A DNA stretch of 64,000 nt from Candidatus Lloydbacteria bacterium RIFCSPHIGHO2_02_FULL_50_18 (GCA_001821395.1 MHLM01000012.1:84107-148106); one strand, 5' to 3'; counted from the stretch's first letter, positions 4,053 to 24,951 are shown. The notes: generated by a model not told the origin, from the letters alone. Made by a program: numbers and translations.

Positions 4053-4073
4053 TGTCAAGGTTAAACCTTGACA
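4053..4073. promoter_or_regulatory. 21-bp palindrome TGTCAAGGTT-a-AACCTTGACA (candidate operator; contains TTGACA)
   Basis: Perfect 10-1-10 inverted repeat. The same motif recurs at 24929-24951. Confidence 0.4.
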
Positions 4074-4085
4074 TTGATATATAAA

Positions 4086-4117
4086 GAAAAAACCTCCGAT
4101 GAGTCGGAGGTATTTTT
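4086..4117. terminator. bidirectional terminator hairpin
   Basis: cctccga-tgag-tcggagg stem with an A-run upstream and a T-run downstream. The minus-strand gene ends at 4116. Confidence 0.55.
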
Positions 4118-4328
4118 ACGTTTGTTTGCTTGGAACTTTTTCTACTCGGTCGCGAGAGTAGTGCCCGTCAAGCCCGGGAATGTCCGTTGAAGTGCATACG
4201 TTGCTTCCATCACAGTGCCGGACAATGTAGATATTGCCGACCGTGAGCGGTAACGTACGCGATGTTTGCCCCGTTGGCTTCGAAAGCAATTTGACTCGGT
4301 CATTCGAGCGCAGTGTTTGATCAGACAT
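4116..4328 (-). CDS. hypothetical small protein (70 aa), translationally coupled to the upstream gene
   Basis: ATG at 4328 overlaps the stop of the 4321..4671 gene by 8 nt (ATGTCTGA). GGAGGA RBS. Terminator lies immediately downstream. Confidence 0.4.
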   Translation of the reverse strand: MSDQTLRSNDRVKLLSKPTGQTSRTLPLTVGNIYIVRHCDGSNVCTSTDIPGLDGHYSRDRVEKVPSKQT

Positions 4329-4671
4329 GAGCATCCTCCATAAATAGATCCGTTTCCGGGGTGATCCCAATACTTTTGATGATCTGCCCGTTGTCACTCC
4401 GTTCGTTCAGGGTGAAACATACCGTTGCAGTACTGTATCCCACGTGACACTTGCTCAGTTTTCCGAGTAATTTGCCTTGCGCGTAGGCGCTGACTGTTTT
4501 ACCGGTGAGCGTGCAAAGTGCAGTGAGATATTGGTCGTTGCGTGCATGGCCCAAGGCTACCGCACTTAGCTCTTTTGCCAACGGATGTCCCATTTTATTG
4601 AGTACATTGACGGCATTTCGGTATTGTTCCTCACGGTACTTGTGGAGTACGTAGGGAATGGGGAATTGCAT
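4321..4671 (-). CDS. hypothetical protein (116 aa)
   Basis: Clean ORF divergent from fusA. No confident family assignment. Confidence 0.45.
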   Translation of the reverse strand: MQFPIPYVLHKYREEQYRNAVNVLNKMGHPLAKELSAVALGHARNDQYLTALCTLTGKTVSAYAQGKLLGKLSKCHVGYSTATVCFTLNERSDNGQIIKSIGITPETDLFMEDAHV

Positions 4672-4869
4672 TTGCCTCTCCTTGTTTTGATTTTGAACTC
4701 CTGTGTAAAACTATACATAAGATATTGTTCTTGTAAAGATTCTTTGCAGGTTGCTCAAAAGGGGAGTTTTCTATATAGTAACGCCATTAAGTGCCCTTTG
4801 TGGCGTTTTTGTTTACGCGGCAGTTCGCGTTACGGGGAAGATCATTTATTCGTTTTTTATTCACTTTTT

Positions 4870-7017
<2,148 letters not shown>

Positions 7018-7088
7018 ATATATTTCTCGTAGATAAATAAAAGCGATCATTATTTAATGGTCGCTTTTATTTTTGCTATACTATATCC

Positions 7089-7640
7089 ATGTACGATGAT
7101 GAAGATGATGACGACGAAGACGAGGGTGAAATAGGGCTTGATGCAGAAACAGTGCGACGCGAAGAGGCCGAGGTCGTGCAGGGGAAAGCATCCCGTGCTT
7201 TTTATGATGACCTCGCAAAAAAAGAAGATGATCGTCACAATGCGATGCGTCTTGACATGCAACAGCGCGCACTTGCCGCGGGTGAACTCCGTCAAAAATT
7301 ACGCAATAAAGAAACCGAGCTGCACGCGCTCCAACTCAAGATCACTATTGAGGAAGACCGTATCGATTATGAAAAAAAGAAAGCGTACCGTCTTGGAGGA
7401 GGTGAATCTATCGCTACGGGAGATGGAGCAACACGATCTGTCCCGATCCCCATACTCTCAAAAGATGTTGACGCTAAGGATGCTGATCAAGAATTTTCGG
7501 TAGAACACGCTGAAATACACATCAAGCAATTGCAGAGTGAAAAATTGGAGCTTGAAAAGGTGTTGAGCGGAATGAAGGAGCATTTGAATGAAGAAGAGCG
7601 TGCGTTGTCACAACTTCAGCATCAACTCGTTCGCATGTAA
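7089..7640 (+). CDS. hypothetical acidic coiled-coil protein
   Basis: N-terminal poly-D/E tract (DDEDDDDEDEGE) followed by heptad-like E/K/L-rich sequence. Confidence 0.5.
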   Translation: MYDDEDDDDEDEGEIGLDAETVRREEAEVVQGKASRAFYDDLAKKEDDRHNAMRLDMQQRALAAGELRQKLRNKETELHALQLKITIEEDRIDYEKKKAYRLGGGESIATGDGATRSVPIPILSKDVDAKDADQEFSVEHAEIHIKQLQSEKLELEKVLSGMKEHLNEEERALSQLQHQLVRM

Positions 7641-7677
7641 TGGCGTTCTTCTTTTTGTTGCATGATATAATTTGGTC

Positions 7678-8937
7678 ATGCCCGAAGATGAAGCCAACCA
7701 ATCCTCAGCCGCATCCGGGAGTCTAGGCGGTCTTCCCGATAGTGTAGCTCCTTCGGCCAGCGTGGAACCAAAAATAATTTCATCACCAGCACCAATGGTC
7801 TCCTCTGTTGTGTTACCCGTGGCGAATCCTATCGATCCTGCGGCGACAGAGAGTTCCGCAAATAATGAGAAGCATCTGCTACTCATTGCGCATCTATTGA
7901 ATCAGGTTCGCATCAAAAAGTCTGAGATAGGTGCTGCTCGCGATAAGATGGGTCAATTGGGGCGCGAGAGCGCGCAATTGCAAACCGAAATGCACCATAT
8001 TGAGCAAGACGTGCGCCGTGTTGAGGGAGAGTTGTACCAGGTCAAGCTTGATGCCAATAAGCAAGAGAGCACGTCAAAAGGAGAGCAGGTTGGCATGAAC
8101 GATAAAGATACGGAACTGAAAAGGCGGAGCGATGGCATCGCGAGGCTCGAGCGAGATATCGATAAATTGAAGCAAGCGATCGCCGAGCGAGAGCAACGAA
8201 TAGCTGAGATAAAAACTGAAAATAGTTCACTTGCGAAATCAAAGGAGGACCTCAGGCGAAAGATCGAGCTCGAACTTGCAGGCATCAGGGTCAAGGCCGA
8301 AAAAGCACGCGAGAAGGAAACCGCGATACGGCGCATAAAACAAGATCATGAACGGAAAAAGATGGAGATCTTTCACAAGAAGAGTGCGCCTGTTGACCGC
8401 TTACACTCAGCTCTAGATAACCAGCGGGAGGTTTCCCGACTGGAGTCCGACCTGCGGCATATTGAGCAGGAACTGTCGCGCACAGAGGGCGAGCTCCGTC
8501 TTATCGAAACGAGTGAGCACCAAGAAGAGAATACATCAAGGGTGGATCAGGGTGAGATGCGCAATAGGGATATGGTGATCTATAAAACAGGAGATGAGGT
8601 TGTTAAGCTCGGCAGAGAGATAGGGCGGCTGAACGTTGAGATTGCCGAGAAGGAAAGTGAGATAGCAAAGCTGGGCGGTGAAGGTCAGGAGTTGAGAAAG
8701 GGAAGAGAGGAGTTACGGCGACGGTATGAACTCGAGCATTTTAGTGCAAACTCAGGATTTACGCTTGCGCATGAGAAAGAGCTTCAGCTCTCTCGTTTTA
8801 AGCAGGGATTTCTTTTGAAGGAGGATAAGATCAAAAAGAACGAACATGCGCAAATACAACTACGCCATGACCTCATCTCCCTTGAGCAAGATCTGGCAAC
8901 GGTTGAAGCAGAATTGCGTCATGCTAACAGTGCATAG
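7678..8937 (+). CDS. hypothetical long coiled-coil protein (419 aa)
   Basis: ATG at 7678; the ORF track began at a TTG at 7672. Repetitive E/R/K/L-rich segments. Confidence 0.5.
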   Translation: MPEDEANQSSAASGSLGGLPDSVAPSASVEPKIISSPAPMVSSVVLPVANPIDPAATESSANNEKHLLLIAHLLNQVRIKKSEIGAARDKMGQLGRESAQLQTEMHHIEQDVRRVEGELYQVKLDANKQESTSKGEQVGMNDKDTELKRRSDGIARLERDIDKLKQAIAEREQRIAEIKTENSSLAKSKEDLRRKIELELAGIRVKAEKAREKETAIRRIKQDHERKKMEIFHKKSAPVDRLHSALDNQREVSRLESDLRHIEQELSRTEGELRLIETSEHQEENTSRVDQGEMRNRDMVIYKTGDEVVKLGREIGRLNVEIAEKESEIAKLGGEGQELRKGREELRRRYELEHFSANSGFTLAHEKELQLSRFKQGFLLKEDKIKKNEHAQIQLRHDLISLEQDLATVEAELRHANSA

Positions 8938-9049
8938 CTCTTGATGTGTAACACACTCTGCCGTCACGGGAGACGAACTCTTGCGGGGAAATCTAAGGAC
9001 AACGTCAGGTGATGATATGGTTGTGCTTCGATAGTTTATTGTTCAGTAA

Positions 9050-9146
9050 AAGGTATTAAACCCCAGGGCAAGCCCTGGGCTCGCGATGGGCTCGCAAAGC
9101 CTCGCGCGAGTCTAGGGCTGTGCCGCAGGGTATTAAACCTTTTTTA
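9050..9146. other. GC-rich structured element flanked by 11-bp direct repeats GGTATTAAACC
   Basis: ccagggcaagccctgg hairpin and ctcgcgcgag palindrome lie between two GGTATTAAACC copies (9051-9061 and 9131-9141). Confidence 0.3.
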
Positions 9147-9189
9147 GCTCTCCTCGGCACCACGGAGAGTACTTCATTTTTTTATGTTC

Positions 9190-9237
9190 AGAATATTATC
9201 TTAACCTATGCTATAGCATAGGTTAAGATAATATTCT
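9190..9237. repeat. 48-bp perfect palindrome
   Basis: agaatattatcttaacctatgcta|tagcataggttaagataatattct is an exact inverted repeat with no spacer. It is flanked by direct repeats CACCACG(G)AGAGTACTTC at 9159-9179 and 9267-9287. Confidence 0.9.
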
Positions 9238-9388
9238 TGATGTAGATATACATGTGTACACTTTTTTAATCGCACCACGAGAGTACTTCCATTCTTCTAA
9301 GGTGGAGTACCACCAAGAAGAATTGGTCGCTCGATGAAATCGCTCTACATCGGCAATAAAAAAACGAACCCGAGGGTTCGTTTTGTCT

Positions 9389-10129
9389 TCATTCAGTGTG
9401 CTGGCGCATTTTTCGCGCTTCGGCAACAAGTCGCTCGAGCGTGTCCGTTGCGATATGGTTTACCATCTCCGATTCAGTCATTGTGGTCGTATCGATGAGT
9501 TGGATCTGCGGATATTTCGGCGAAAGTTCTTCATGCATCGTCCGATAGCGGTCCACGAGTTTGCGGATCGACGCGGGGTTCGATGTCTCACCGAGCTTGT
9601 CCGAGAGTGCGATACGTTGTCCGCGGCGCATTGCTTCTTCAGGTTCACATACCACGACATAGGAGGCGATGATACGGTCTACCCAAAAACGCAGCAGGAA
9701 GAATTGCTGGATGAGTTCACGCTCTTCACCGGAGAGCAGTCCCTTGTCTTGCCAGTACATCATCCACGCGTACGGGTCAAAGATCGAACGATCAAAGATC
9801 ACCACATCGTAAGCATGACCATGTGTGTAGTCGATGACCATCTCGAGCGCATAGAGTGCGGTGCGGATGTTGTATTCCGGAGTCGTACGCGGAATATGTC
9901 CGATTACTTCGGCGCCTTCTTGCGGAATGTGCACGCGCAATCCTCTGCGTTTCAAGAATTTATAAAGTTCCTTGATGCAGGTCGTTTTTCCCGAATCCGG
10001 AGAACCGGTGAATTCGATAAGGAATGGGCGTGGCAAGAATGTACCTCCGTAACGCACGTCCGTTCGCAGGTATCCGTGCAGCATGTCCGCCATGAGTTCG
10101 AGGCGGGCAATGTCGATGGTTTTTGACAT
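9389..10129 (-). CDS. deoxynucleoside-kinase-like P-loop kinase
   Basis: Walker A FTGSPDSGKTT and an ERS-like IFDRSIFD motif. The plus-strand ORF 9383..10126 is its shadow. Confidence 0.6.
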   Translation of the reverse strand: MSKTIDIARLELMADMLHGYLRTDVRYGGTFLPRPFLIEFTGSPDSGKTTCIKELYKFLKRRGLRVHIPQEGAEVIGHIPRTTPEYNIRTALYALEMVIDYTHGHAYDVVIFDRSIFDPYAWMMYWQDKGLLSGEERELIQQFFLLRFWVDRIIASYVVVCEPEEAMRRGQRIALSDKLGETSNPASIRKLVDRYRTMHEELSPKYPQIQLIDTTTMTESEMVNHIATDTLERLVAEARKMRQHTE

Positions 10130-10182
10130 GAAATACTCTCTTTCTTTTGAAAAAGTACCAAGCTGTGTTTTACTATACCTGA

Positions 10183-10776
10183 ATGATGCTCAAAAATAAT
10201 ACTATACAAACAGGGCCCCGTATTGTGGGCTTTGACATGGATGGGGTGATCATCAACCATGCTCCGAATAAGATCATGCTTGCAAAGCGTTATGCCGTAA
10301 CACTGCGTCCCGAGGAGACGCACTCGGAACTCCTGCCCGGCAAATTCCCCCGCGAGGAGTATCTTGCCTTCCAGAATATGCTTTATGGTAATTCGGATTT
10401 TGCGCTTTCGGCACCGCTCATGCTCGGTGCATTCGATGTTTTGCACGAGATGAAAGATCGTGGCATCCCCTTCGTGCTGATATCCCGCCGCAGGGAACCC
10501 GAAAATGCCATCAGACTTCTTAAGGAGCGCAAATTGTGGGGCGACTTTTTTACCGAAGCAAATGCTTTTTTTGTCGGCACACCGGAAGAAAAGAATGTCG
10601 CAAGCGTACGAGAGGGCGTCACTCATTTCTTTGATGATGAGCGTAAGGTGTTGCGCGCCATACCGGACGTGAAAAGGAGATTTCTCTTTGATTCACTTCG
10701 CCAATTCAATGATGAAGATGAGTTTGAGCGTGTATTTGATTGGAAAATGCTCCGTCAGATCGTTTTTGAGGAATAG
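10183..10776 (+). CDS. HAD-superfamily hydrolase, 5'(3')-deoxyribonucleotidase-like
   Basis: N-terminal motif I VGFDMDGVII, which is DxDG(V/T). Confidence 0.6.
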   Translation: MMLKNNTIQTGPRIVGFDMDGVIINHAPNKIMLAKRYAVTLRPEETHSELLPGKFPREEYLAFQNMLYGNSDFALSAPLMLGAFDVLHEMKDRGIPFVLISRRREPENAIRLLKERKLWGDFFTEANAFFVGTPEEKNVASVREGVTHFFDDERKVLRAIPDVKRRFLFDSLRQFNDEDEFERVFDWKMLRQIVFEE

Positions 10777-10850
10777 GACAAAACGCGGAAGGTGCATAAG
10801 TCGCTTTGAAGGCTGCGGGGGTCTGATACGATGAAGATGAGGAACCTCTT

Positions 10851-11438
10851 ATGACCATTATGCACGAAGAAGGAATAGTCCTTGGGTTTGATCTCGACGG
10901 GGTCATCATCGACCACACGCAAAATAAAATGCTGATCGCTTCGCGCTACGGTATTGAATTAAGTCCAAAAGATACTCACGCCGAGCACATGGGTACGCAT
11001 TTTACTCCTGAACTCTATCGCGTGATCAAATCCCAGCTTTATGATTCAACTGCGCTCGCGCTCGAGGCTCCTTTGATGGCGGGAGCTTTCGCGACATTGG
11101 CAAAACTCCGCGAACAAGGGATCCCATATTTCCTCGTTTCGCTTCAGAAGAATCCCATGCATGCTGCGCATTTGCTCGAAGAGCGGGGTTTGTGGGGTAC
11201 GTACTTCACTCCCGAGAATACGTTATTCGCACGGAATGCTGATGAAAAGCATGCACTCGCGGCGCAGATCGGTGTCACCCACTTCATTGATGATGAACCA
11301 AATATCCTCGACGTGATGATCTCGATCCCGAACCGTATATTATTTGATGCGCGCGGACTGTTTCCCGAAAAAACTGACTATTGCCATGTAGAGAGCTGGA
11401 GTGAGCTTGCTGAAACACTGGGAATGGCGAATCGTTAG
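10851..11438 (+). CDS. HAD-superfamily hydrolase, tandem paralog of 10183..10776
   Basis: LGFDLDGVIIDH. Collinear similarity to the upstream gene across its full length. Confidence 0.6.
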   Translation: MTIMHEEGIVLGFDLDGVIIDHTQNKMLIASRYGIELSPKDTHAEHMGTHFTPELYRVIKSQLYDSTALALEAPLMAGAFATLAKLREQGIPYFLVSLQKNPMHAAHLLEERGLWGTYFTPENTLFARNADEKHALAAQIGVTHFIDDEPNILDVMISIPNRILFDARGLFPEKTDYCHVESWSELAETLGMANR

Positions 11439-11548
11439 CCTCGTACCAGTATCTCAGGTTCATTTTTGCGCTTTGTGGATTTTATGTTATGTTTTTTCAT
11501 ACGCTGTGAATACCGCGCGTAAGTTCTTTTGAATAAAGGAGTTCGAGT

Positions 11549-11860
11549 ATGACTGAGGCATTGCCTTCTTGTCGGGACATGCTGTGTGACGCGTTTGTCC
11601 GTGAATTTGATGAATTGCCGACAGATTCGATCTGGCTGGTAAGCAAGATAGGTTCCGAATTCGCGCTGTCCTCCGCGACGTCGATCGCTTTTAAGGAGTG
11701 GCTTCGACAACATCAGGGATTTTTCAGTAAATTTCCCCGCAGATATTGTGACTGGAAACGGAGCGATGTGCTGCGGTCGTCAAAGATCATCTCCGCTTAC
11801 CGATCGACTTTTTACGTATACATCCTGCCCGATGAGCTAAAGACTTTTCCGGAGTCATGA
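11549..11860 (+). CDS. hypothetical protein (103 aa)
   Basis: AAGGAG RBS 8 nt before the ATG. A terminator follows. Confidence 0.5.
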   Translation: MTEALPSCRDMLCDAFVREFDELPTDSIWLVSKIGSEFALSSATSIAFKEWLRQHQGFFSKFPRRYCDWKRSDVLRSSKIISAYRSTFYVYILPDELKTFPES

Positions 11861-11890
11861 GCATTCCCCGTACCTTTTTGTGTTTCAACA

Positions 11891-11913
11891 CCGAGCATTG
11901 CTCGGTTTTTTAT
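11891..11913 (+). terminator. rho-independent terminator
   Basis: ccgagc-att-gctcgg plus TTTTTT. This invalidates the ORF-track start at 11880. Confidence 0.55.
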
Positions 11914-11924
11914 TTTCACACACG

Positions 11925-12446
11925 ATGACGTACAATAGCACTATGGATATCATTTCACATGGTCTCTATGGCGGTGTGCTTGTCGGCAGAAGGAGCCGTA
12001 AAAGTTTTTGGACTTCGTGTTTTTTTGGTATCGCTCCGGATTTGTTCTCTTTTGGCATTTTTACCGCGAGTATTTGGCTGCAGCTTGCTTCCGGTCCGGA
12101 CTGGTCTTCGGATCACCCTGACGTTTCGCAGATACCCGATTATGTGAATTTGCTCTATGGTATTACCCATAGCCTTGTTATTTTTGCGCTCGTATTCCTC
12201 ATTGTTTGGTTTATAAAAAAGAAACCCGTCTGGGAAATGCTGGCGTGGGGTTTTCACGTTGTACTGGACATTTTCACCCACAATCTCCATTTTTTCCCGA
12301 CACCATTCCTCTGGCCAATATCAGGGTACTATTTTAATGGACATAGCTGGGGTACGTTGGAGGTATTCATCCCGAATCTTACCGTACTTGCCATTCTTTA
12401 TGGCTGGTGGTGGTTTCAAAAAAGGAAGAAACGGGCTACCTCTTAG
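11925..12446 (+). CDS. integral membrane protein (possible membrane-bound metal-dependent hydrolase type)
   Basis: Four or five hydrophobic helices with conserved His residues (ISHGLYGG, HSLVIF, HVVLDIFTHNLH). Start at the ATG at 11925 or 11943. Confidence 0.4.
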   Translation: MTYNSTMDIISHGLYGGVLVGRRSRKSFWTSCFFGIAPDLFSFGIFTASIWLQLASGPDWSSDHPDVSQIPDYVNLLYGITHSLVIFALVFLIVWFIKKKPVWEMLAWGFHVVLDIFTHNLHFFPTPFLWPISGYYFNGHSWGTLEVFIPNLTVLAILYGWWWFQKRKKRATS

Positions 12447-12548
12447 CATATCGCGGGACGGCGCCTCACTTTTCATGCGCAGTTCTCTCTCGATATGAAC
12501 TTCGGATAATTGGGTGCCCCATCATTTAATATCCGCTTAACGTACAAA

Positions 12549-12569
12549 TGTGGAAAAAGCTGTGGATAA
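12549..12569. promoter_or_regulatory. DnaA-box-like 9-mers (TGTGGAAAA, TGTGGATAA) upstream of tuf
   Basis: Perfect reverse-complement DnaA box TGTGGATAA at 12561-12569. Confidence 0.3.
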
Positions 12570-12829
12570 GCAGTGAATAAGGCGGATCGCTAAGAGAGAT
12601 TGACTCTCAGCCCACATCTGGTATCCTGTGCAGACGTTGCTTCATGTGAGTTTTTAGGTTTGAGCCATTCAGTCGAAAGTATGGCTTAAAACAAGGAGGA
12701 AAACGAGCAGTGCACGTGGAATAAAGTTATACGACCATCTCGTATAACCTCTTGTTTTTACAGTATTGGTCATTTCGGTATTATCCGATGTTTCCAACGC
12801 TGAATTATTTAACTAATCAAAAAAGCTTT

Positions 12830-14020: not shown

Positions 14021-14058
14021 GGCACCATCACCCCATTGTTACTCAACCATAGAATGTC

Positions 14059-14421
14059 ATGACTACAGGAACGGAACACACAAAGAAAGCCGCAAGTGCA
14101 AAGACGAAAGAGGTAGTCTCGAAGCTGCGCATCCGCGTACGCGCATATGAGTACAAGATCCTCGACGCATCGGTGCGTCAGATCATGGATACGGCATTGC
14201 GCTATGATGCAAAGCTTGTCGGGCCGATCCCTCTTCCGACTCAGATCACGAAGTACACGGTCAATCGTTCAGCGTTCATCTATAAGGATGCTCGTGAGCA
14301 GTTCGAGATGCGCGTCCACAAGCGCTTGATCGACATCATGAACCCGACACCAAAGGTGATCGAGGCGCTGACTAACCTTACACTTCCTTCAGGCGTCAAT
14401 ATCGACGTGAAGATGATGTAA
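14059..14421 (+). CDS. rpsJ: 30S ribosomal protein S10 (with N-terminal extension)
   Basis: IRVRAYEYKILDASVRQIMDTA...GPIPLPT match the S10 core. Confidence 0.9.
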   Translation: MTTGTEHTKKAASAKTKEVVSKLRIRVRAYEYKILDASVRQIMDTALRYDAKLVGPIPLPTQITKYTVNRSAFIYKDAREQFEMRVHKRLIDIMNPTPKVIEALTNLTLPSGVNIDVKMM

Positions 14422-14523: not shown

Positions 14524-14680
14524 TTCAACATCTTCTTCAGGGTGCTGAACATTTTCTCTGCAAATTTGATCGAATGTCTTACCGTTTTCCGGAAGGAAAG
14601 CGGGGGCTTCGGTTATTACGGAGCAAAGTACTATTCTTTCTTTCGTTTATTCCCATGACATTCCTACTTAAATTACGGAC

Positions 14681-15304: not shown

Positions 15305-15308
15305 GCTT

Positions 15309-16022: not shown

Positions 16023-16023
16023 T

Positions 16024-16470
16024 ATGGCAACACTCTTCAATAAAAAGTCTCCCGTCAAAAAGACGGTAGCAACAACCGATGTTGCAAAGGCGAAAGCCGC
16101 AAAAGTGGAGAAGGCAGACAAGAAGGACGAGGTCGCAGCACTCAAGGTCAAGGAGGCCGGAAGTGTGCGCGCAAAGAAGGGGGGACTCGAGCTCAACATG
16201 ATACTCGTTCGTCCGCATATCACCGAGAAAGCAACCGATCTATCCGAGCACAACGTCTACGCATTTGAGATCGCACGTATGGCGAACAAGGCGCAGGTCC
16301 GTCAGGCGATCGAGAAGTTCTACAAAGTGAAACCCGTCAAGATCGCGATCATCATGGGTATCGCAAAGTACATGAAGAATCCTCGTACCGGTCGAATGCA
16401 GACAAAAAAGATTGCAATTAAAAAGGCGCTCGTCTACTTGAAAAAAGGAGACAAGATTGAGTTTGTATAA
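16024..16470 (+). CDS. rplW: 50S ribosomal protein L23 (K/A-rich N-terminal extension)
   Basis: L23 core ILVRPHITEKAT...YAFEIARMANKAQVRQAIEKFY. Confidence 0.9.
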   Translation: MATLFNKKSPVKKTVATTDVAKAKAAKVEKADKKDEVAALKVKEAGSVRAKKGGLELNMILVRPHITEKATDLSEHNVYAFEIARMANKAQVRQAIEKFYKVKPVKIAIIMGIAKYMKNPRTGRMQTKKIAIKKALVYLKKGDKIEFV

Positions 16471-16481
16471 ATCTTATCAAC

Positions 16482-17327
16482 ATGAAAACATTCAAACCAT
16501 TAACGCCTAGTCTGCGTAACACCGTCCTCACTCCCTATAAGGAGCTCCTCTCCGGCGATTCGAAAGCAATCCCGAAGAGTCTTACGAAAGGAAAGCGAAA
16601 GACCGGTGGCCGCAATAACCAGGGTCGCATCACCATGCGGCACATTGGCGGAGGCAACAAGAACCTGAAGCGCGATGTCGACTTCAAATACAAGAAGCGT
16701 GACGTCTTGGGTCGCGTCGAAGCGGTCCAGTACGATCCCTTGCGCACCGCATTCATCGCCCTCGTTGTCTACAAGGACGGAGAGCGCGTGTATGTCGTCG
16801 CACCGAAGGGGATGAAGAAGGGAGACACGATGATCACGAGTGAGAAGGCCGCCCCTACGGTAGGGAACCGACTTCCGCTCAAGAAGATCGCCGTCGGTAC
16901 CTTCGTGTACAACGTTGAGGTCCAGCCCGATGGAGGAGCAAAGCTTGCTCGCTCTGCCGGAAACTTCATCGAAGTCATCGCCAACGATATGGGCTACGCA
17001 TTCTTGAAGATGCCGTCATCCGAGGTCCGCAAGGTCCCCGAGAATTGTTGGGCATCGATCGGAGGAGCTTCGAACGATCAGCACAAGCTCCGCAAGGAGG
17101 GAAAGGCCGGTCGTAACCGCTGGAAGGGTATCCGACCACACGTGCGCGGTTCAGCCATGAACGCCGTCGACCATCCTCATGGAGGTGGAGAAGGCCGCAT
17201 GGGTCGCGGTATGCGACGCCAGAAGTCACGCACCGGTAAGTTCATCGGCAAGGGACAGAAGACCAGATCGCCGAAGAAGTATTCGAACGTGTTCATTGTC
17301 TCTCGCCGAAAGGTGGGCAAGAAGTAA
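16482..17327 (+). CDS. rplB: 50S ribosomal protein L2
   Basis: GGGNKNLKR...RSAGN...HPHGGGEGR are L2 motifs. Confidence 0.95.
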   Translation: MKTFKPLTPSLRNTVLTPYKELLSGDSKAIPKSLTKGKRKTGGRNNQGRITMRHIGGGNKNLKRDVDFKYKKRDVLGRVEAVQYDPLRTAFIALVVYKDGERVYVVAPKGMKKGDTMITSEKAAPTVGNRLPLKKIAVGTFVYNVEVQPDGGAKLARSAGNFIEVIANDMGYAFLKMPSSEVRKVPENCWASIGGASNDQHKLRKEGKAGRNRWKGIRPHVRGSAMNAVDHPHGGGEGRMGRGMRRQKSRTGKFIGKGQKTRSPKKYSNVFIVSRRKVGKK

Positions 17328-17333
17328 AAATTT

Positions 17334-17424
17334 TCGCGCATTGCTTTGTTGTCATCGTCGCGAACCCCGCTCGTCATATACGAATATGCCTCGGGAGGTA
17401 TCGCAACTCGACGCCTCGCACTGC
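17334..17424 (+). repeat. conserved structured intergenic element, copy B (after rplB)
   Basis: See copy A. It sits directly after the rplB stop. Confidence 0.45.
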
Positions 17425-17462
17425 ATCGAAAATATTTACTTCTTTCTAAGATTGAAGGAAAA

Positions 17463-17492
17463 CAAAACCGCTTACTAAGCGGTTTTGTTGTA
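17463..17492 (+). terminator. rho-independent terminator
   Basis: aaccgctta-ct-aagcggtt plus TTTGTTG. Confidence 0.6.
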
Positions 17493-17567
17493 TACAAGCA
17501 CTTATGTGTCAAAAGTTTTTATACATAAGAAAATTGACATTCTTATGTATGAGGATATAATACTTCA

Positions 17568-18654
17568 ATGAGTAAAAAACCAGCTATTGTCGAACCCCTC
17601 AAATTAGATGGCTTAGGGCTAGACTACAACAGGTTTGCAGAAGAACTTTCAACCGCCGAATATGCGCTCGGGTTAATTGAGGGTATGCAAAAAAACTACT
17701 AAACCCAAATCTTTTGATTAGTCCCCTAACCGCCAAGGAAGCAGCTGCGAGTTCTAAGATAGAAGGAACACAAAGTGATGTGTCCGATGTATTTATGTTT
17801 GAGGCGGGTGGGGAAACTAAACATGCAGATACACGTGAGGTTGTGAATTACCGTCGAGCAATGCGTTTGGCCATGACGGAGATTAAAAAAGGAAGAGAGG
17901 TAAGCAGTCATCTGGTAGAGACCCTTCACGGAGTATTATTGAAAGATGTCCGTCATATTGGCAATCTTGGAAAATATAGAGAAGGACAAGTTTGGATTGC
18001 CGAACGATCTGGTGATCCAATTGAGAAAGCGATATACGTCCCACCCGAGGCAATACACGTGCGCGGGTTGGCTCAGAATTTGATTGAATACATAAACGTG
18101 GGGAAGGAGAATGCATTGATTAAGGCAGGCGTTGCACACTATCAGTTTGAGGCAACTCATCCATTTGATGATGGGAATGGGAGAATTGGGAGACTCCTTA
18201 TTCCAATTGTGTTACACAGACATCAGAGATTGTCATCACCAATTCTTTATCTTAGCGGCTACTTTGATGATCATCGAGATGAATATATCGCGAGGCTCCA
18301 TGCATTGGATGATGGTGCTGATATGGAAGATTGGTTAAAATTTTTTTACATTCGGTTAGCCAGCAGCTCGGTCAAACACAAAAAATAATTGAAGGAATTT
18401 ATGAACTCTATGACCAGCTTAGACTTGAAAATAGGGGGATAAAATCACCATTCGTTATTCCCCTCATTGATATGATGTTTGAGATGCCAATTTTTACGTT
18501 GGCCATGGTGCAAGAATCAACTAAATGCTCGAGCTATATAACTGCATCGACACTAATTAAGAGAATGATTGATGCGGGTCATGTTGAAAATGTAGGAAAG
18601 GTTGGAAGGGAAAAGCTTTATGAATTCCGCTCGCTTGTAAAAGTATTAAAATAA
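17568..18654 (+). pseudogene. Fic/Doc-family protein interrupted by two -1 frameshifts at homopolymers
   Basis: HPFDDGNGRIGRLL is the Fic motif. The N-terminus (frame of 17568) stops at 17700. The middle is ORF 17714..18388 and the C-terminus is ORF 18331..18654. Frame switches occur at A7 (17689-17695) and T7 (18341-18347). Confidence 0.7.
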
Positions 18655-18782
18655 TCAATGAATCTGTCCTGGTAAGGAAATTAATCACAATTGATTTCAC
18701 AAAATTTTTACTTCCTTTACTTCCCACTGAAACCCATGTAGTTTGACGGGGGATTGATACGTACTTTAACAGGAGAAATCCG

Positions 18783-19440
18783 ATGAGTATTGGTGAAAAT
18801 GTTTTTGAGCGTACGGGTCCTTCGACCATGTCGGCGCGCGGTTTCTACGGCGCACTGGGATTGATCGTCGCGTTTGGGCTCTGGTTATCAAGTCTCGTGG
18901 CGGCAGAGTTCACTGCATGGCAGCCGTCACTCATGGTGATACTGCTTGTCGGGCTCGGCATCCCGATCATCGGCATTGTGATCGCTGCGAAGTCTGAGAC
19001 TCCAGCGATCTCATTCCTCGGCTACCTCATGGTGGCGGTGCCATTCGGGATGCTCCTGGGGCCAACGCTCAATCAGTATTCGCCCGAGGTCGTGCAAAAG
19101 GCGATGTTCTACACCGCGGCGACCACGCTCGTCATGGGTGCGGCGGGCGTGCTCTATCCGAATTTCTTTGCGCGGATCGGCGGCGCACTCTTCATGGCTC
19201 ATGGCACTCATCGGGCTTGTCGTTGTGCGCGTCATCGGCATCTTTATTCCCGCATTGGGCAACATGTCGGCCATCGACTATATTTCTGCGGGTATCTTCT
19301 CGCTTTACATCGGCTACGATATGTACCGTGCAAGTGCAATGCCGCACACGCTCGACAATGCCGTTGACGCCGCATTGTCCCTGTATCTCGACATCATCAA
19401 TTTGTTCCTCAGTTTGCTCCGGATATTCGGCAAGAATTGA
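18783..19440 (+). pseudogene. Bax-inhibitor-1/YccA-family membrane protein disrupted by a 7-bp tandem duplication
   Basis: The C-terminal frame encodes LYLDIINLFLSLLRIF, the BI-1 signature. tcatggc is tandemly duplicated at 19192-19198 and 19199-19205. Removing one copy restores a single 218-aa ORF. Confidence 0.65.
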
Positions 19441-19592
19441 TCGTTTCGTTTTAAACTCGGCATACGCCGGGTTTTTTGTTGCATGTATTTGTCACGATGG
19501 TTGATCTCAGCCTCGCGAGCTGGTGGTGTTGCGTCTCACAGCCACTTGTGTTTGTATGGTCACAGCGTTCATTTGATCACAAAGGAGAATTC

Positions 19593-20093
19593 ATGTTGCT
19601 CGACAAATTGGTTCCCGTTCTCGGTACGCCCATTCGCATTGGTGTACTTATGGAAAGCAGTGGCGATGGAACAAAAATACCATTTTTCCTCATCGATTTT
19701 GGTAAAGAGTATCCATCGATCGAACCGTTGATCGCCAGAAATGGCACAATGACGCTCGACATCGTACCGGATGGTGACCACTGTACTTTCCACGTCACTG
19801 GAGATCGGATGGTCAGCGAGCTCACTCCCGAGCTTTTGAATCGCGCGCTCGCCGCACCGCCTGAGACGAGGAACCAAGTATTGTTCGGGCAGGGAAGGCC
19901 CGAATTCGCTTCAAGTGTTACGCTTTCAGGCGAATCATGCGAGCAATTCATCGAAGCATTCACTGCAGGCGGCGGGTTCTGGCTTCTCGTCACGCTCAGT
20001 CAGTCCGGAACTCGATCCGTGATCGCTCCAGACGGTGAGATCATTCGTACTGAGTCGTGTTCGCGCTTGGAACTTGAGTATCTCTTGGGTTAA
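19593..20093 (+). CDS. hypothetical protein (166 aa)
   Basis: AAGGAG RBS at 19581. A strong terminator follows. Confidence 0.45.
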   Translation: MLLDKLVPVLGTPIRIGVLMESSGDGTKIPFFLIDFGKEYPSIEPLIARNGTMTLDIVPDGDHCTFHVTGDRMVSELTPELLNRALAAPPETRNQVLFGQGRPEFASSVTLSGESCEQFIEAFTAGGGFWLLVTLSQSGTRSVIAPDGEIIRTESCSRLELEYLLG

Positions 20094-20114
20094 GGTTTGC
20101 CGTGCAACACCCCG

Positions 20115-20150
20115 ACGTGTCGGGGTGTTTTTGTTTTTTCGGTAAATAAA
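20115..20150 (+). terminator. rho-independent terminator
   Basis: acaccccgac-gtgt-cggggtgt plus TTTTTGTTTTTT. Confidence 0.6.
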
Positions 20151-20168
20151 AACTCCGCAGATGCGGAG

Positions 20169-20528
20169 TCAGTCGGGCTTGAAAAGTTTTGCAAGAAGTT
20201 CTTGCGGGAGAATGTTCGGATCGAGCGGCAATGCATCCAATTCGTCAGCCGACCCTATCGTCTCTCGCGACTCAGCGATCTCGAGTGTGCGGACGAGGAG
20301 CAATATCAATGCAGTGATATATTGCCGGAATTCATCAGCGGTCTGCGTAGCTACCTCTTCGTGTGCACTTTTTGCACGCTCCCCGATCAGTTCAATGAGT
20401 CCTCCAAGAGAGGGATTAATTTCTTTTAATCGCAGTACGTGAGTCGTAATGTGTGCAATGAGGGCCGGCCGTAATTGTGGAAGTTCACGGCTTGCCGCCA
20501 AAACATCCAAGGGCATGACATGTTTCAT
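20169..20528 (-). CDS. hypothetical protein (119 aa), predicted all-alpha
   Basis: ORF is followed on the minus strand by the ctccgc/gcggag hairpin plus a T-run (20156-20178). No confident family. Confidence 0.4.
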   Translation of the reverse strand: MKHVMPLDVLAASRELPQLRPALIAHITTHVLRLKEINPSLGGLIELIGERAKSAHEEVATQTADEFRQYITALILLLVRTLEIAESRETIGSADELDALPLDPNILPQELLAKLFKPD

Positions 20529-20689
20529 GGATACTCCATGTGGTGAACAGTGCGCTTACTCTGTTGTACGCGCGAGCGTATGTTGTGTCAAGAAATAGCG
20601 ACTGCATCCCATTTTGTTGTTGAATGGAATGTTTCATCCCGCCCCGTCTGCTCGCTTTACATCTTTTATTGTTGCGTTAGAGTAAGCAT

Positions 20690-21010
20690 ATGTTTAACTT
20701 CAATAAAAAACCGATCCCTGAAGATCGAATAATGACGTGGGAGGAGGAGGCGACCTTCCCCATTGAGCTCCAAGAAGCAGCTCTCTCGAGTTTGATAGAA
20801 GTCGCACAGCGGCAAGGAGCATCTTCGGTCGATCTTGAAAAACAATTGAATACGATTGAGATCAAGAGACGGGTCATTCTCTGGCTCGGAACTTTTCCTG
20901 ATATAGCAGAGAAGAATGCTGCGATCGAACGGGCAAATGCGGAGGGTTTGCCGCCGGAGATATTCACTACTCCGGAGTTTGTTGCTCCGGAAGTTGAGAC
21001 GCTCCAATAG
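20690..21010 (+). CDS. hypothetical protein
   Basis: ORF only. A terminator-like hairpin lies at 21058-21090. Confidence 0.35.
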   Translation: MFNFNKKPIPEDRIMTWEEEATFPIELQEAALSSLIEVAQRQGASSVDLEKQLNTIEIKRRVILWLGTFPDIAEKNAAIERANAEGLPPEIFTTPEFVAPEVETLQ

Positions 21011-21057
21011 GCGGTGTGCCGTGGTCTTTTGACCTTGCCACCCCTGGTCTTTGAACG

Positions 21058-21090
21058 AAAAACCCGCTCATTAGTAGCGGGTTTTTGTAA
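21058..21090. terminator. bidirectional hairpin terminator
   Basis: cccgct-cattagt-agcggg flanked by A- and T-runs. Confidence 0.4.
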
Positions 21091-21918
21091 CAGAGCTCCC
21101 CTATTTCTTTCCTCCCTTCTTCGGCTTCTTTGCCTCCTTCTTGATGTTGTTGTCTCCGCGTCCCATGTTGTATGCGTCTATTGATAATATTGCACAATTA
21201 TATCATGACACAGCAAAACACCACCGCACATTTGTGCGGTGGTGTTTTGCTTGTTGTTATTTCACTACGACCTTCTTTGGCTTTTTCTTATTTTTCTGCT
21301 GTGCATTGTTTCCTTTTGCCATGACGTATTGCTTATACTGCTAATGAACGAACGTATCTTCAGTGTAGCAGATTTTCGTCATGACATGAAAATGCCCGGT
21401 TGTACCCATGTTGATAGTGGTCATACGGACCGACCCATGCTTATTTGCAAAAACAGGGGATAACTTTCACTACGGAAGGCGCTTTGAGGCTATAATGGTG
21501 ACAACATTTTCGCACATTACGCGCTGGGTGCTTTTGGAGTAAAAAGCGAGCAGGACGTAGTGTGAGAAGATCCACAAAATGGATCCTTATGCTATGTTCC
21601 AGCGAATGGACATATCGTTGCGGAGAAACAAAAACTTCGTTAACGGTAGAGGTTAGTCGTATATCTTTCTTATCAACATCGTGGATACGCGTTCGTTGCC
21701 TACAGCAAGGAATGTGAAAAGTGATGAAGAGAAGTACTCTGGAGCCAATTTTTATGAATCCGTTGTCGAGTGCTAAAAAGCAAAAGTAACGATCGCCAAT
21801 CGTCCTCCCGCATAAAAAAGTATCTGTAGTACTTTTTATGCCAGAGTGCATGCTCATCGAAAGATATCAACGAATTGTCATAGCGCCGCGTTCAGGCAAG
21901 AACGCGGCGTTATGTATT

Positions 21919-22041
21919 GAGGATTGAGAACATAGCAAATTTCTTTGTTGAAACATGAACATGCAAGCAAGCCGTACTCCGAGTACGGCTTGCTTGCATG
22001 TTCATGTTTCGTCTCGAACTTTGCATATGTTCTCAATCCTA
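21919..22041. repeat. about 123-bp nested imperfect palindrome with a near-perfect 59-bp core at 21951-22009
   Basis: aaacatgaacatgcaagcaagccgtactc-c-gagtacggcttgcttgcatgttcatgttt is flanked by the outer inverted repeat aggattgagaacata / tatgttctcaatcct. Confidence 0.7.
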
Positions 22042-22125
22042 AAGGATGAATGTCCAATCGCTACTGTTGCGATTTTTTTATTATCTGGCAGTCTGAGTAC
22101 AGAATGGTCTTCGAGGGAGGCAGGA

Positions 22126-22812
22126 ATGGTTCAAGCATCAGTCAACAAAGAGCAACTAGATAAGCTTCGAAATACTTATTGCGATGCAGCGCAGTACTTG
22201 GGTGTCCCACGCACAAGTGCAGAACGATGTTTCACGAAACTCGCGCAATACTATGCTGAACCGCATCGGCGCTATCATACGCTGGCTCATCTGCACCAGT
22301 GCATGGTTGAGTTTGCGGATGTAGTGTGGCACAGTCAGGATCCTGCGCTCATTGTCATGGCTATTTTTTACCATGATATTACGTACGACGTTCATCGCAA
22401 CGATAACGAAGCGAAGAGTGCGTTGTATTGGAAATTCATTGCCCGCCATGTACTCGAAGTGAAGAACGAAGGATTCATCGCCGAGGTCGCCCGATTGATC
22501 GAACTTAGCGGCGAACATCGTACGGACCCTGTCACTGATCCTGATGCCGCGCTCTTCCTCGACGTCGACATGTCGATTCTAGGAGCTGACGCACCGGAGT
22601 ACGACGCATATGCGGCCGCAGTGCGACAGGAGTATGCGCACTGCAGTGACGATGAATGGGCGTTTGGTCGCGTTGCGAAGTTCCTTGATCCGACCTTGTG
22701 TGAGGACAGAATATTTCTCACTGATATCTTTCGTCAAAAATATGAAGAAAATGCGCGCGCAAACCTGATGGAAGAGCGTTGCCGCTATCAAAAAAACCTA
22801 CCGCTCGCATGA
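22126..22812 (+). CDS. HD-domain metal-dependent phosphohydrolase
   Basis: Ordered H...HD...D motifs: YHTLAHLHQ, IFYHDITYD, FLDVDMSILG. GAGGGAGG RBS precedes the ATG at 22126. Confidence 0.55.
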   Translation: MVQASVNKEQLDKLRNTYCDAAQYLGVPRTSAERCFTKLAQYYAEPHRRYHTLAHLHQCMVEFADVVWHSQDPALIVMAIFYHDITYDVHRNDNEAKSALYWKFIARHVLEVKNEGFIAEVARLIELSGEHRTDPVTDPDAALFLDVDMSILGADAPEYDAYAAAVRQEYAHCSDDEWAFGRVAKFLDPTLCEDRIFLTDIFRQKYEENARANLMEERCRYQKNLPLA

Positions 22813-22824
22813 GCGGTTTTTTCT
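22799..22824 (+). terminator. rho-independent terminator overlapping the stop codon
   Basis: ccgctc-gcat-gagcgg plus TTTTTT. Confidence 0.6.
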
Positions 22825-22911
22825 TGACAAAGAGTATTTGTTGTGGAGAATCAAGAACGGCAGTCCCAATAGGGAAAGCCGTTCTTTTACAACCAACCGA
22901 AAGGATAACTC

Positions 22912-23760
22912 ATGAGCGAGATAGCCGAAAAAGTAAACCCATCGACCGATGGGCAGATGAAAGACCTCACCAGCGTTCTGGTGACCGCCATGCCCGATCA
23001 CGAAAAATTCCCACGGGAACAAATCGAGTATTGGATGAAAAACAAGCGCTTGCTCGCGGCAAAGGTGCGCGCAGTGCTTGAGGGGGCCCCACGTGGCCTT
23101 GGGCAAACAACGCAAGAAGTGCTGCAATCCTGGGAGCGATTTTATCGCGAGATACTCAAAATAAAAGTCGACTTCTCGGATATCGATACTCCGCCACGTT
23201 TTAGTGAATTTAAGGCCATTATTCCCGTGATCTCATCTATTTCCGCAGAAGAAATTGTCGGTTTACTCACGAAAAATTTCAATCATGAATTTAGTTTGAG
23301 AGACTTTCAGTGCAACTTAGATGAGCTCTCGCACTTGCGTCCGGAGGGGCACTATGCGGTTTTGCACCGAGGTACTCGAATGCCCGATCTCGATATGCAG
23401 ATCACCAGGCAGCGAGCTACTGAGGGTGTGGTCGCGAGGTACACTTGCGTACATCCTCCCGTCGATGCTTCTTCATTTATGAATCCAAGGGAGTACATCC
23501 TTTTTGCGGCGTTCAACGTCTGGATGACATCTGGTCGTCACTCGTCACCATGGTTCGACTACGACATTGCTGGCACTAATTTTATTGGCGAGAGAGCGCT
23601 CCCTGGAACCGCGTTCCCACAGATGGATGCTTTTGATCGACCACTGGCCGCGTGTTGCCACTCTAGCAATAACCATGAGTGCCACATTGAACACCCTTGT
23701 GGCTTTGAAAATTCCTACGGGCGACTTGTGAAAGTACTTTCTTCCTTGCGCATCGCATAA
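22912..23760 (+). CDS. hypothetical protein, paralog of 30268..31089
   Basis: AAAGGA RBS. Collinear similarity to the other copy (W..F..+D...IIP ... Y.V.HRG...PD). Confidence 0.5.
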   Translation: MSEIAEKVNPSTDGQMKDLTSVLVTAMPDHEKFPREQIEYWMKNKRLLAAKVRAVLEGAPRGLGQTTQEVLQSWERFYREILKIKVDFSDIDTPPRFSEFKAIIPVISSISAEEIVGLLTKNFNHEFSLRDFQCNLDELSHLRPEGHYAVLHRGTRMPDLDMQITRQRATEGVVARYTCVHPPVDASSFMNPREYILFAAFNVWMTSGRHSSPWFDYDIAGTNFIGERALPGTAFPQMDAFDRPLAACCHSSNNHECHIEHPCGFENSYGRLVKVLSSLRIA

Positions 23761-23793
23761 CGTGTTTATCACCACCGAGAAATCGGTGGTTTT

Positions 23794-24864
23794 TTATATG
23801 ATGAGCATTCCGTCGCCGAATGAGTAGAAGCGGAATTTTTCCCTTATGGCGATGTCGTAGAGCGCGAGGATGTCGCGCTTCGCTCTTTTGTGTTTGAGGA
23901 GTGCGTCGACCAAGAGCATGAGTGATGAGCGAGGGACGTGGAAGTTCGTAATAAGCCCATCTGCAATCTTGAATTCGTACGGCGGGTAGATAAATATATT
24001 CGTAGGCTTAGAACATTGCTCAACACTCCAAGGTTCCACCTTGGAGTGTTGGATTGCAGCGGATTCGAGGGTACGCATGGCGGTAGTGCCGACGGGGATG
24101 ATGGGAATACCCGCCGCTTTTGCACTATTTATTTTTTTTGCGCTTTCCTTTGTGATATCGAGATACTCCGCAAAAAGTTTTTTACTTTTGAAATTTTGTT
24201 CATCAATCGGCGCAAAGGTACCCGCACCTACATGAAGCGTGACCTCCGTACGCGTGATGTGTTCACGTTTCATTTTTTCGAGTAAGCGATCGGTGAAATG
24301 GAGCGACGCCGTTGGTGCTGCAATTGACGCGGGATATTTCGCGAGAATACTTTGGTATTTTTCACGCAATGTGTGCTCGGACATCGTATTGCCCTTGATA
24401 TATGGGGGTATTGGCGTCACACCCTCTTTCTCGAGCAAACTCCAAAGGCTGCCTTTGGATACACTGGGATTGAAAAAGAAAAATTGCTCTTCTTGTCTTT
24501 CGACCTCAAGGTGCGCCCCTGACTTAAAGAAGAGTTTGGCACCGGGAAGGATCTTGCGGTCGACCACTCCTTTAATAGAGATGTCGCCGGGACGGAATTC
24601 ATTCATCATGAGAAGCACCTCGATCTTGCCGCCCGTTTCTTTGGAAAGCCACAATCGGGCAGGAACGACCTTTGTATCATTAAAGACAAGCAGGCTGGGT
24701 TTGGGGAGATATTGGTCAATATTCCGGAAAACATCAAAATGCACCTTATCAGTTTTCGTATCGTAGACGAACAATCGAGCGGAATCTCGCGGAGAAGCGG
24801 GCTCATTGGCGATAAGCCCCTCAGGGAGGTGGTAGTTATAATCATCGAGAGAGATCATGTGCAC
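23794..24864 (-). CDS. queA: S-adenosylmethionine:tRNA ribosyltransferase-isomerase
   Basis: VFNDTKVVPARL, GGKIEVLL, IPPYI, AAPTASLHFT, TLHVGAGTF, VGTT..R.LES, TNFH.P.S.L are all canonical QueA blocks. Confidence 0.9.
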   Translation of the reverse strand: MHMISLDDYNYHLPEGLIANEPASPRDSARLFVYDTKTDKVHFDVFRNIDQYLPKPSLLVFNDTKVVPARLWLSKETGGKIEVLLMMNEFRPGDISIKGVVDRKILPGAKLFFKSGAHLEVERQEEQFFFFNPSVSKGSLWSLLEKEGVTPIPPYIKGNTMSEHTLREKYQSILAKYPASIAAPTASLHFTDRLLEKMKREHITRTEVTLHVGAGTFAPIDEQNFKSKKLFAEYLDITKESAKKINSAKAAGIPIIPVGTTAMRTLESAAIQHSKVEPWSVEQCSKPTNIFIYPPYEFKIADGLITNFHVPRSSLMLLVDALLKHKRAKRDILALYDIAIREKFRFYSFGDGMLII

Positions 24865-24928
24865 ATGCTATCAGGTGAAGCAATATGGGCAAGCTTTTCT
24901 ATGTTTAGCAACGTATTTTCGACTTTTT

Positions 24929-24951
24929 TTGTCAAGGTTTAACCTTGACAA
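24929..24951. promoter_or_regulatory. second copy of the TGTCAAGGTT-N-AACCTTGACA palindrome, upstream of queA
   Basis: ttgtcaaggtt-t-aaccttgacaa lies 65 bp upstream of the queA start on its template side. Confidence 0.4.

Follow-up and report, generated by a model that had tools for sequence, protein, structure and literature searches.

The closest described counterparts of the DNA repeat reported here are the repetitive extragenic palindromes (REPs) of Escherichia coli and Pseudomonas. These are short, dispersed hairpin repeats, mostly extragenic and favouring the 3' ends of genes, and with them comes a REP-associated tyrosine transposase (RAYT), a Y1/HUH enzyme whose gene lies between two repeat copies in the layout of a REPtron (Nunvar 2010; Bertels & Rainey 2011, PMC3116915; Ton-Hoang 2012; Messing 2012, PDB 4ER8). 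The genes of TnpA-Y1 subclasses 2.6 and 3 are flanked by 'atypical' hairpins without GT[AG]G (Quentin et al. 2018, PMC6006769). The repeat considered here occurs in a stretch of 64,000 nt from Candidatus Lloydbacteria bacterium RIFCSPHIGHO2_02_FULL_50_18 (GCA_001821395.1, MHLM01000012.1:84107-148106), called the window throughout, with positions counted from its first nucleotide. The organism belongs to the Candidate Phyla Radiation (CPR)/Parcubacteria. The genomes of the CPR, or Patescibacteria, are tiny; not many regulators are known from them, and few repeats have been described. The two palindromes of the window are regarded here, with good confidence, as solo REP-like hairpin repeats with a cognate RAYT-like Y1/HUH transposase. 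The 21-bp palindrome is dispersed through CPR genomes, and in many independent loci two copies bracket a transposase gene in the REPtron layout.

The palindrome and its recurrence

The palindrome TGTCAAGGTT-N-AACCTTGACA is present in exactly two copies in the window, copy 1 at 4053-4073 (TGTCAAGGTT-A-AACCTTGACA) and copy 2 at 24930-24950 (TGTCAAGGTT-T-AACCTTGACA). Both are exact matches, solo and without assigned strand. No further match was found in the window with up to three mismatches or with up to five, and none of 100 dinucleotide-preserving shuffles of the window contained the 21-mer. A preliminary description of this DNA had recorded two exact and distant intergenic palindromes and was right to do so; its range for the second, 24929-24951, is the same site with one extra complementary T/A pair, and for this range the inverted-repeat listing gives arms of 11 nt. 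Copy 2 is prolonged by two such pairs, T/A at 24929/24951 and T/A at 24928/24952, and copy 1 is flanked by T on both sides and not prolonged outward. The T-runs and hexamers reported in the same description were also found, with six to seven T before both copies and TTGACA on both strands of each. The left flanks of the two copies are alike over about 30 nt (4020-4052 and 24897-24929; TAGC.A..TATTTTC.C.C-T6-7). The reverse-strand flank of copy 1, AAAAAGCGGGAAAAT, also occurs beside copies in a Saccharibacteria metagenome-assembled genome (MAG; L018) and, in L139, on the downstream side of a transposase gene; it is not general across sites. As single-stranded DNA (ssDNA), both copies are predicted to fold into a stem of 9-10 bp with a 3-nt loop (z about -5.5 to -6.3), with energies on the two strands of -8.2/-8.5 kcal/mol for copy 1 and -9.2/-9.5 kcal/mol for copy 2. 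Written with this 3-nt loop, the repeat is TGTCAAGGT-N3-ACCTTGACA.

The surroundings of both copies agree with those first described. Copy 1 lies in a convergent spacer, with a plus-strand open reading frame (ORF) that ends at 3969 and has no Pfam match on one side and small minus-strand ORFs opposite. A terminator-like hairpin follows the plus-strand ORF on the plus side of this spacer (3987-4007), and a two-way terminator-like hairpin (4092-4111) closes two small minus-strand ORFs. The S12-S7-fusA (str) order is interrupted here (2145-7017), with about 1.7 kb and copy 1 between S7 and EF-G; the 1.7 kb holds three ORFs without Pfam match, one on the plus and two on the minus strand. Copy 2 is placed 66-72 bp upstream of queA (PF02547, minus strand) and downstream of a 79-aa minus-strand ORF, whose terminator is at 25043-25070. 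The S19 gene (25751-26095) comes after queA instead of after an S10 cluster. Nothing in the window matched Rfam at gathering thresholds, and the window has no tRNA genes.

The S7 and S19 proteins encoded in the window are identical to database entries from Candidatus Lloydbacteria MAGs, and DNA identical to the window is present in several groundwater metagenome assemblies. A genome scan was made with one genome per species and the pattern GTCAAGGTT-N(0-4)-AACCTTGAC, and its counts cover the matches listed. Among these, the 14 matches with a one-base spacer that lay outside the window organism all came from MAGs: 13 from named CPR lineages and one from an unclassified MAG. The CPR lineages with the 21-mer comprise Taylor-, Gottesman-, Lloyd- and Zambryskibacteria, Saccharibacteria, Parcubacteria and UBA6023. 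The strict 21-mer was found in at least 117 metagenome stretches, often several times per contig. Sites were collected by exact match, and the 137 left after removal of duplicates are the basis of the placement, flank and neighbour counts given below. Among 2.9 million viral contigs none carried the 21-mer, which gives no sign of a phage vector. The form with a 3-nt spacer makes up a large family of its own in Chryseobacterium, Aquirufa and one Deinococcales MAG; in the Deinococcales MAG JAWKPU01, GTCAAGGTT-NNN-AACCTTGAC is high-copy, with up to five copies in 8 kb (L014, L015, L020, L022 and others). A full-text literature search with the two 10-mers returned unrelated primers only, and a search for RAYT or 'REPIN' together with Patescibacteria or CPR found no paper linking them.

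Some copies stand in particular arrangements. In one metagenome organism (L204, at 1421, 2088, 8632 and 9498, and L186/L224) a longer composite repeat of about 70 bp is built around the 21-mer. It reads ..TTCCAAGTTCGCGAA.CAGAG-[21-mer]-CTGTCGTGTGTTTGGAAGACC, has its own outer inverted repeat and is present in four copies in 14 kb. Two copies only 5 bp apart were seen in L200 (785-831), one or both within a glycosyltransferase-like ORF. In L108 a copy (4449-4469) ends 4 nt before a tRNA-Ala(CGC) gene, and the preceding ORF ends exactly at the copy; the related contig L169 has the same tRNA-like sequence after its copy (8894-8914), as judged by sequence likeness and not by a tRNA scan.

The flanks of the 137 sites are complementary to each other beyond the palindrome, at the first five positions in 78%, 60%, 49%, 39% and 33% of cases, versus 25% by chance. 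When G-U is counted, the three pairs outside the 21-mer are paired in 82%, 63% and 60% (ungapped alignment), with all four Watson-Crick types at the first pair and three of them at the second and third. Covariation of the outer pairs scores 0.167, versus 0.103 +/- 0.007 in shuffles, and none of 500 shuffles reached 0.167. Among CPR loci, 134 copies are perfect, five have one mismatch, four have two, none has three and six have four, and several of the double changes are compensatory (e.g. TATCAAGG..CCTTGATA and ..GGCT.AGCC..). Because the changes are compensatory and the foot covaries, the conserved unit is the hairpin rather than the linear sequence alone. No general flank motif or guide tetranucleotide was found over 274 oriented flanks; the motif AGCGG[GC]AAAA was present at three sites only.

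About 71% of the 137 sites are intergenic. By crude ORF calls, 26 of these spacers are co-directional, 21 convergent and 10 divergent, and the copies cluster at the 3' ends of genes. The other sites, about 29%, lie within a long open frame, always in the sole stop-free frame, where the repeat encodes S-R-(L/F)-N-L-D. This placement follows the rules of published REP surveys, including a bias to replication and repair genes (PMC3733652; PMC6006769).

From the sequence of the window the preliminary description had put forward an operator of a dimeric helix-turn-helix (HTH) regulator with a small regulon, which would include queA, and had looked to promoter positions and a cognate regulator gene as checks. 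A perfect 10-1-10 dyad upstream of queA that overlaps TTGACA hexamers is what such an operator could look like, but copy 1 lies between convergent genes, and the related sites prefer convergent or co-directional spacers and coding frames. Neither a recurrent regulator gene nor a functional theme was found among the neighbours of the 137 sites; queA is not a recurrent neighbour either, and the protein genetically tied to the motif is the Y1 transposase described below. The variants, too, are perfect or compensatory, unlike the graded degeneracy of operator sets, and the flanks bear the covariation signature of a hairpin. Flank covariation, compensatory variants and placement thus point to a hairpin-forming repeat and not to a duplex operator, an explanation with hardly any probability left.

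The in-frame copies were found in LigA, UvrC, UvrD/PcrA, a MutY-like protein, Dus, TruB and KsgA. In LigA they occupy three different positions, by lineage, and LigA with a copy shows no apparent length change relative to E. coli LigA. Orthologous pairs of LigA, Dus and UvrC share the site position, with flanks only 48-74% identical. In Dus the copy falls in a hypervariable loop, whose length ranges from 3 to over 60 residues. An origin of the coding copies by precise 21-nt insertion was considered and not upheld, given the unchanged length of LigA and a Dus loop that with its copy is only two residues longer than in the nearest relatives. The pattern among the Dus homologs, counted below, suggests sporadic gain and decay in tolerant loops and not strong selection on each site.

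The linked Y1/HUH transposase gene

In related CPR loci, pairs of copies 670-735 bp apart enclose an ORF of 212-229 aa with the HUH motif MPNHFHLL and the tyrosine motif YIHLNP. NHFH is near-invariant, the catalytic tyrosine Y142 of YIHLNP is invariant, and the rest of that motif is invariant or nearly so. The ORF matches the Pfam family PF01797 (Y1_Tnp, 'Transposase IS200 like') with E values of 1e-8 to 6e-10. A copy stands on both sides of the gene in at least 11 distinct loci (0-2 mismatches, compensatory variants counted), and in about ten more, at contig ends, a copy can be seen on just one side. Between the end of the upstream copy and the ATG there are 22-32 nt, whereas the downstream copy adjoins the stop codon or overlaps it. 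This gene is the sole strongly recurrent neighbour of the 137 sites, with 28 instances in 18 loci. Its homologs at E <= 1e-10 number 2960, and in MAGs of Taylorbacteria, Parcubacteria and Pacebacteria they bear the name 'transposase'.

Three homologs (L244, L246 and L248) were picked without regard to the motif. The gene in L248 has one-mismatch variants on both sides. In L244 a diverged hairpin, ATCAAGGAC-T-GTCCTTGAT, occupies the same upstream position, and the diverged upstream hairpin of L246 is TCAAGGTC-G-GACCTTGG, both of the CAAGG..CCTTG type. The ribosomal L10/L12 genes of L244 and L246 have the transposase gene a few genes upstream of them, and the transposase gene has no TnpB gene next to it. 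An AlphaFold2 model of the CPR transposase (pLDDT 83, pTM 0.84) has as its top match in the PDB the E. coli TnpA-REP/RAYT with its REP hairpin (4ER8; E 1.5e-4, TM 0.63), followed by IS608, ISDra2 and IS200 TnpA. Judged by its motifs and predicted fold, the cognate protein is probably a RAYT-like Y1/HUH transposase of the TnpA-Y1 family, widespread in CPR/Patescibacteria.

The same data bear on a more familiar explanation, in which the palindromes would be the ends of an ordinary insertion sequence (IS) of the IS200/IS605 type and the solo copies eroded remnants of full elements. The Pfam assignment to Y1_Tnp, the position of the gene between hairpins, as in IS200, and the plain name 'transposase' in the source annotations agree with it. 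It does not account for two ends that are the same perfect palindrome instead of distinct left and right subterminal hairpins, nor for solo copies that outnumber gene-flanking ones by about 3.5:1 and carry no gene remnants. The protein, at about 220 aa, is longer than an IS200 TnpA, and its best structural match is a RAYT and not the IS608 or IS200 TnpA. There is no adjoining TnpB gene, and the gene has a similar position upstream of L10/L12 in two diverged genomes. An ordinary IS200/IS605 origin is therefore considered very unlikely.

In ten of the 13 transposase loci TAnnnT (TATAAT in two loci) stands 16-19 nt after the TTGACA of the upstream copy, and the ATG comes 6-7 nt later. At the transposase genes the repeat can thus, by the spacing of these elements, supply a putative -35 box. 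Because the ATG is only 6-7 nt after the -10 box, this spacing also suggests a leaderless transposase mRNA, with possible autoregulation. At the two window copies no -10 box lies 15-19 nt from TTGACA on either strand, and a sigma-70 promoter scan of the window used the TTGACA of neither copy, so a promoter role is not supported there. A sigma-B-like reading (GTTTAA-N15-GGGAAA) was dropped, since it fits one strand of copy 1 only. The alternative suggestion in the preliminary description, a promoter-embedded palindrome or a mini repeat, is in essence correct: the palindrome is a REP-type mini repeat with a -35 placement at transposase genes, though not supported as a promoter at the window copies.

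It is improbable, though less so than the operator or the ordinary IS, that the copies are kept because they act locally as co-opted expression signals, either as portable -35 boxes for promoters in either direction or as hairpins that stop or stabilise transcripts, a role that would be compatible with a REP origin. The promoter arrangement at the transposase loci and the clustering at gene 3' ends speak for such a function, and published REPs influence termination and mRNA stability (PMC3733652). A terminator scan also flagged copy 2 weakly on the plus strand (AATTTTAAG tail), where, however, no gene ends. Copy 1 was not flagged; it has no T-run after its stem and stands between two better terminator-like hairpins. 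Tails were unconserved over the 137 related sites, that is, the flanks are not conserved as U-tracts. The missing -10 boxes and the lack of an Rfam match also count against this explanation. The window copies have no demonstrated regulatory role at their sites and are probably passive, and regulation of queA through copy 2 was not shown by the analysis.

For the REP-like hairpin repeat with its own transposase, a course of events can be proposed by analogy with E. coli TnpA-REP and its REPs and with IS608. The transposase would recognise the folded hairpin on ssDNA, for instance on the lagging-strand template, and would cut and rejoin beside it, so that copies are seeded or moved. The two window copies would be products of such cutting and rejoining.

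Several results weigh against this reading. The copy number looks low, with two copies in 74 kb here and, in related contigs, roughly one additional copy for every 50 kb, and the REPs of E. coli are far denser. The flanks at the foot are variable and covarying, with no GTAG or GTGG, whereas canonical REPs have a 5' GT[AG]G tag at this position. The best NCBIfam model for the protein is indeed that of the REP-associated tyrosine transposase, at 36-64 bits and so below the 80-bit cutoff, and sequence-only searches of the PDB with the transposase gave no significant match. No transposase homolog was found in the 64-kb window (by tblastn) or in the 10 kb upstream of it, so that the identity of the 21-mer is what ties the system to this particular genome. 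The sharing of sites by orthologs is partly by construction, since the sites were found by exact match, and among the 120 closest homologs of Dus one has SRLNLD and two have decayed forms.

Sparseness and decay also tell against a DNA signal under genome-wide selection that has nothing to do with transposition, for instance an uptake sequence for CPR competence or a parS/matS-like site of chromosome organisation. This idea draws on the exact sequence common to CPR phyla and on in-frame copies within essential genes, whose position is shared by diverged orthologs of LigA, Dus and UvrC. A ComEC-type competence gene (PF03772) is also present upstream of the window, about 8-10 kb before its start (L250, 235-1806). 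Known uptake sequences, however, occur about once per kb, far above two in 74 kb, and the Dus sites are patchy and decaying. Tight and repeated linkage to a transposase gene would not be expected of such a signal, the covarying hairpin foot is not needed by signals bound as duplex, and the same stem stands with a different loop beside RAYT homologs of Bacteroidota. An uptake or organisation signal is thus extremely unlikely.

Other palindromes and features of the window

Besides the two copies, the window holds a perfect 14-3-14 palindrome within the queA coding region, CAACACTCCAAGGT-TCC-ACCTTGGAGTGTTG (24021-24051). Its apex, CCAAGGT-TCC-ACCTTGG, shares the CAAGGT/ACCTTG apical stem and the 3-nt loop of the repeat, and it coincides with the site of an insertion of 5-6 residues relative to the solved QueA structures 1VKY and 1WDI. 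A diverged relative of the repeat within a gene is one possible reading of it, with membership uncertain.

Three more palindromes were recorded. One is a perfect 30-1-30 palindrome of 61 bp in a divergent spacer (21950-22010; GAAACATGAACATGCAAGCAAGCCGTACTC-C-GAGTACGG...GTTTC), with an imperfect extension to about 21920-22045 (GGATTGAGAACAT...ATGTTCTCAATCC). It overlaps the first ATG of an ORF at 21955-22812 and its sequence shows no relation to the 21-mer. A perfect 48-bp palindrome, AGAATATTATCTTAACCTATGCTA/TAGCATAGGTTAAGATAATATTCT, occupies a convergent spacer (9190-9237) between ORFs ending at 8937 (plus strand) and 9389 (minus strand). A perfect 19-2-19 inverted repeat, AGCAAAACACCACCGCACA..TGTGCGGTGGTGTTTTGCT (21212-21251), resembles a two-way terminator, and similar palindromes with an A-run, a stem and a T-run are found at 29718-29747 and 17461-17489.

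Close to copy 2, at a distance of 34-64 nt, three direct DnaA-box-like 9-mers lie at 24984-25013 (TATTCCACA, TAATCCACA and TTATCAACA), each matching TTATCCACA in eight of nine positions. The GC skew does not switch there. Perfect DnaA boxes are about five-fold commoner at distances of up to 100 bp from the 137 sites than in the same loci as a whole, an enrichment that may reflect intergenic location alone.

Comparison with known systems

The nearest likeness outside the CPR is in the Bacteroidota. RAYT homologs of Chryseobacterium, Aquirufa and Kaistella share 26-31% identity with the CPR proteins and have TGTCAAGGTT-NNN-AACCTTGACA on their flanks; such loci with GTCAAGGTT-NNN-AACCTTGAC are L051, L033 and L105. 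In Chryseobacterium one copy is in-frame within the transposase gene itself (VKVQNLD; L051), an arrangement that has been described for subclass 2.4 (PMC6006769). The CPR version of the system uses an unusually short, perfect hairpin without GTAG, with a stem common to these Bacteroidota loci. It is conceivable, though rather doubtful at present, that hairpin and Y1 enzyme form an ancient, mostly vertically inherited and domesticated ssDNA-processing system of CPR and Bacteroidota. The hairpin would then have a triple role, as substrate of the enzyme, as -35 box or operator in the enzyme's own leaderless promoter, and as a signal tolerated or used by the host. If so, the signal would be kept even in replication and repair genes, and the identity of the stem across phyla would reflect long-term purifying selection and not recent spread.

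For the window itself the consequence of a REP-like assignment is modest. Recognition of such repeats prevents the annotation of a palindrome of this type as operator, promoter or terminator, and the repeat can serve as a marker for CPR contigs in metagenomes. Repeat and enzyme make a compact natural pair for the study of hairpin recognition by HUH/Y1 proteins, and they would illustrate in a concrete case how a repeat can at the same time be the -35 box in the promoter of its own transposase.

Among described systems, the IS200/IS605 elements (IS608, ISDra2) share with the CPR system the HUH/Tyr superfamily, the recognition of ssDNA hairpins and a gene between hairpins. Their ends, however, are two different subterminal hairpins and the whole element is multicopy, whereas in the CPR the hairpin alone is dispersed and the gene of L244 and L246 lies a few genes upstream of L10/L12. 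The TIRtrons, in which a terminal inverted repeat (TIR) is associated with a tyrosine transposase (TIRYT), also have a Y1 gene between inverted repeats (Di Nocera et al. 2013, PMC3733652), and these repeats can form small dispersed families, some of them self-complementary. The TIR consensus GGGGWSAS is unrelated to the CPR repeat (PMC3733652), and the C-terminal HTH domains of that group were not detected by Pfam in the CPR protein.

With the REP/RAYT systems of E. coli and Pseudomonas the CPR repeat has in common the short dispersed hairpin, the mostly extragenic placement favouring gene 3' ends, the Y1/HUH gene between two copies, and occasional in-frame copies, notably in replication and repair genes; 4ER8 is likewise the structure nearest to the fold predicted for the CPR protein. 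It differs in its perfect palindrome with a 9-10 bp stem and a 3-nt loop, where REPs are imperfect and 35 bp long, in its low copy number, and in a core sequence common to several phyla, whereas REPs are species-specific. In addition, the CPR repeat appears to give the transposase promoter its -35 box, and the CPR protein stays under the cutoff of the curated RAYT model. Because the GT[AG]G tag is absent, the element is not a canonical REP and belongs with the 'atypical' hairpins.

Within that group, subclass 2.6 of the Bacteroidetes resembles it in the lack of GT[AG]G, in stems of 9-10 bp with 3-nt loops, and in copies elsewhere in the genome. The motifs NHFH, LFQG/LFES and YIHLNP of the CPR protein also resemble those of subclass 2.1, for which no REP was found by Quentin et al. 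(PMC6006769); both subclasses are candidate placements for it. Parcubacteria and Microgenomates are not mentioned in the text of that survey (PMC6006769), and CPR genomes appear to have been outside it. The subclass 2.6 hairpin of Flexibacter litoralis, GCGCAAGGT-TCT-ACCTTGTGC (PMC6006769), has the same CAAGGT/ACCTTG core as the CPR repeat. A REP-type repeat is thus already known as a kind, and what is new here is a REPtron-like system in the CPR.

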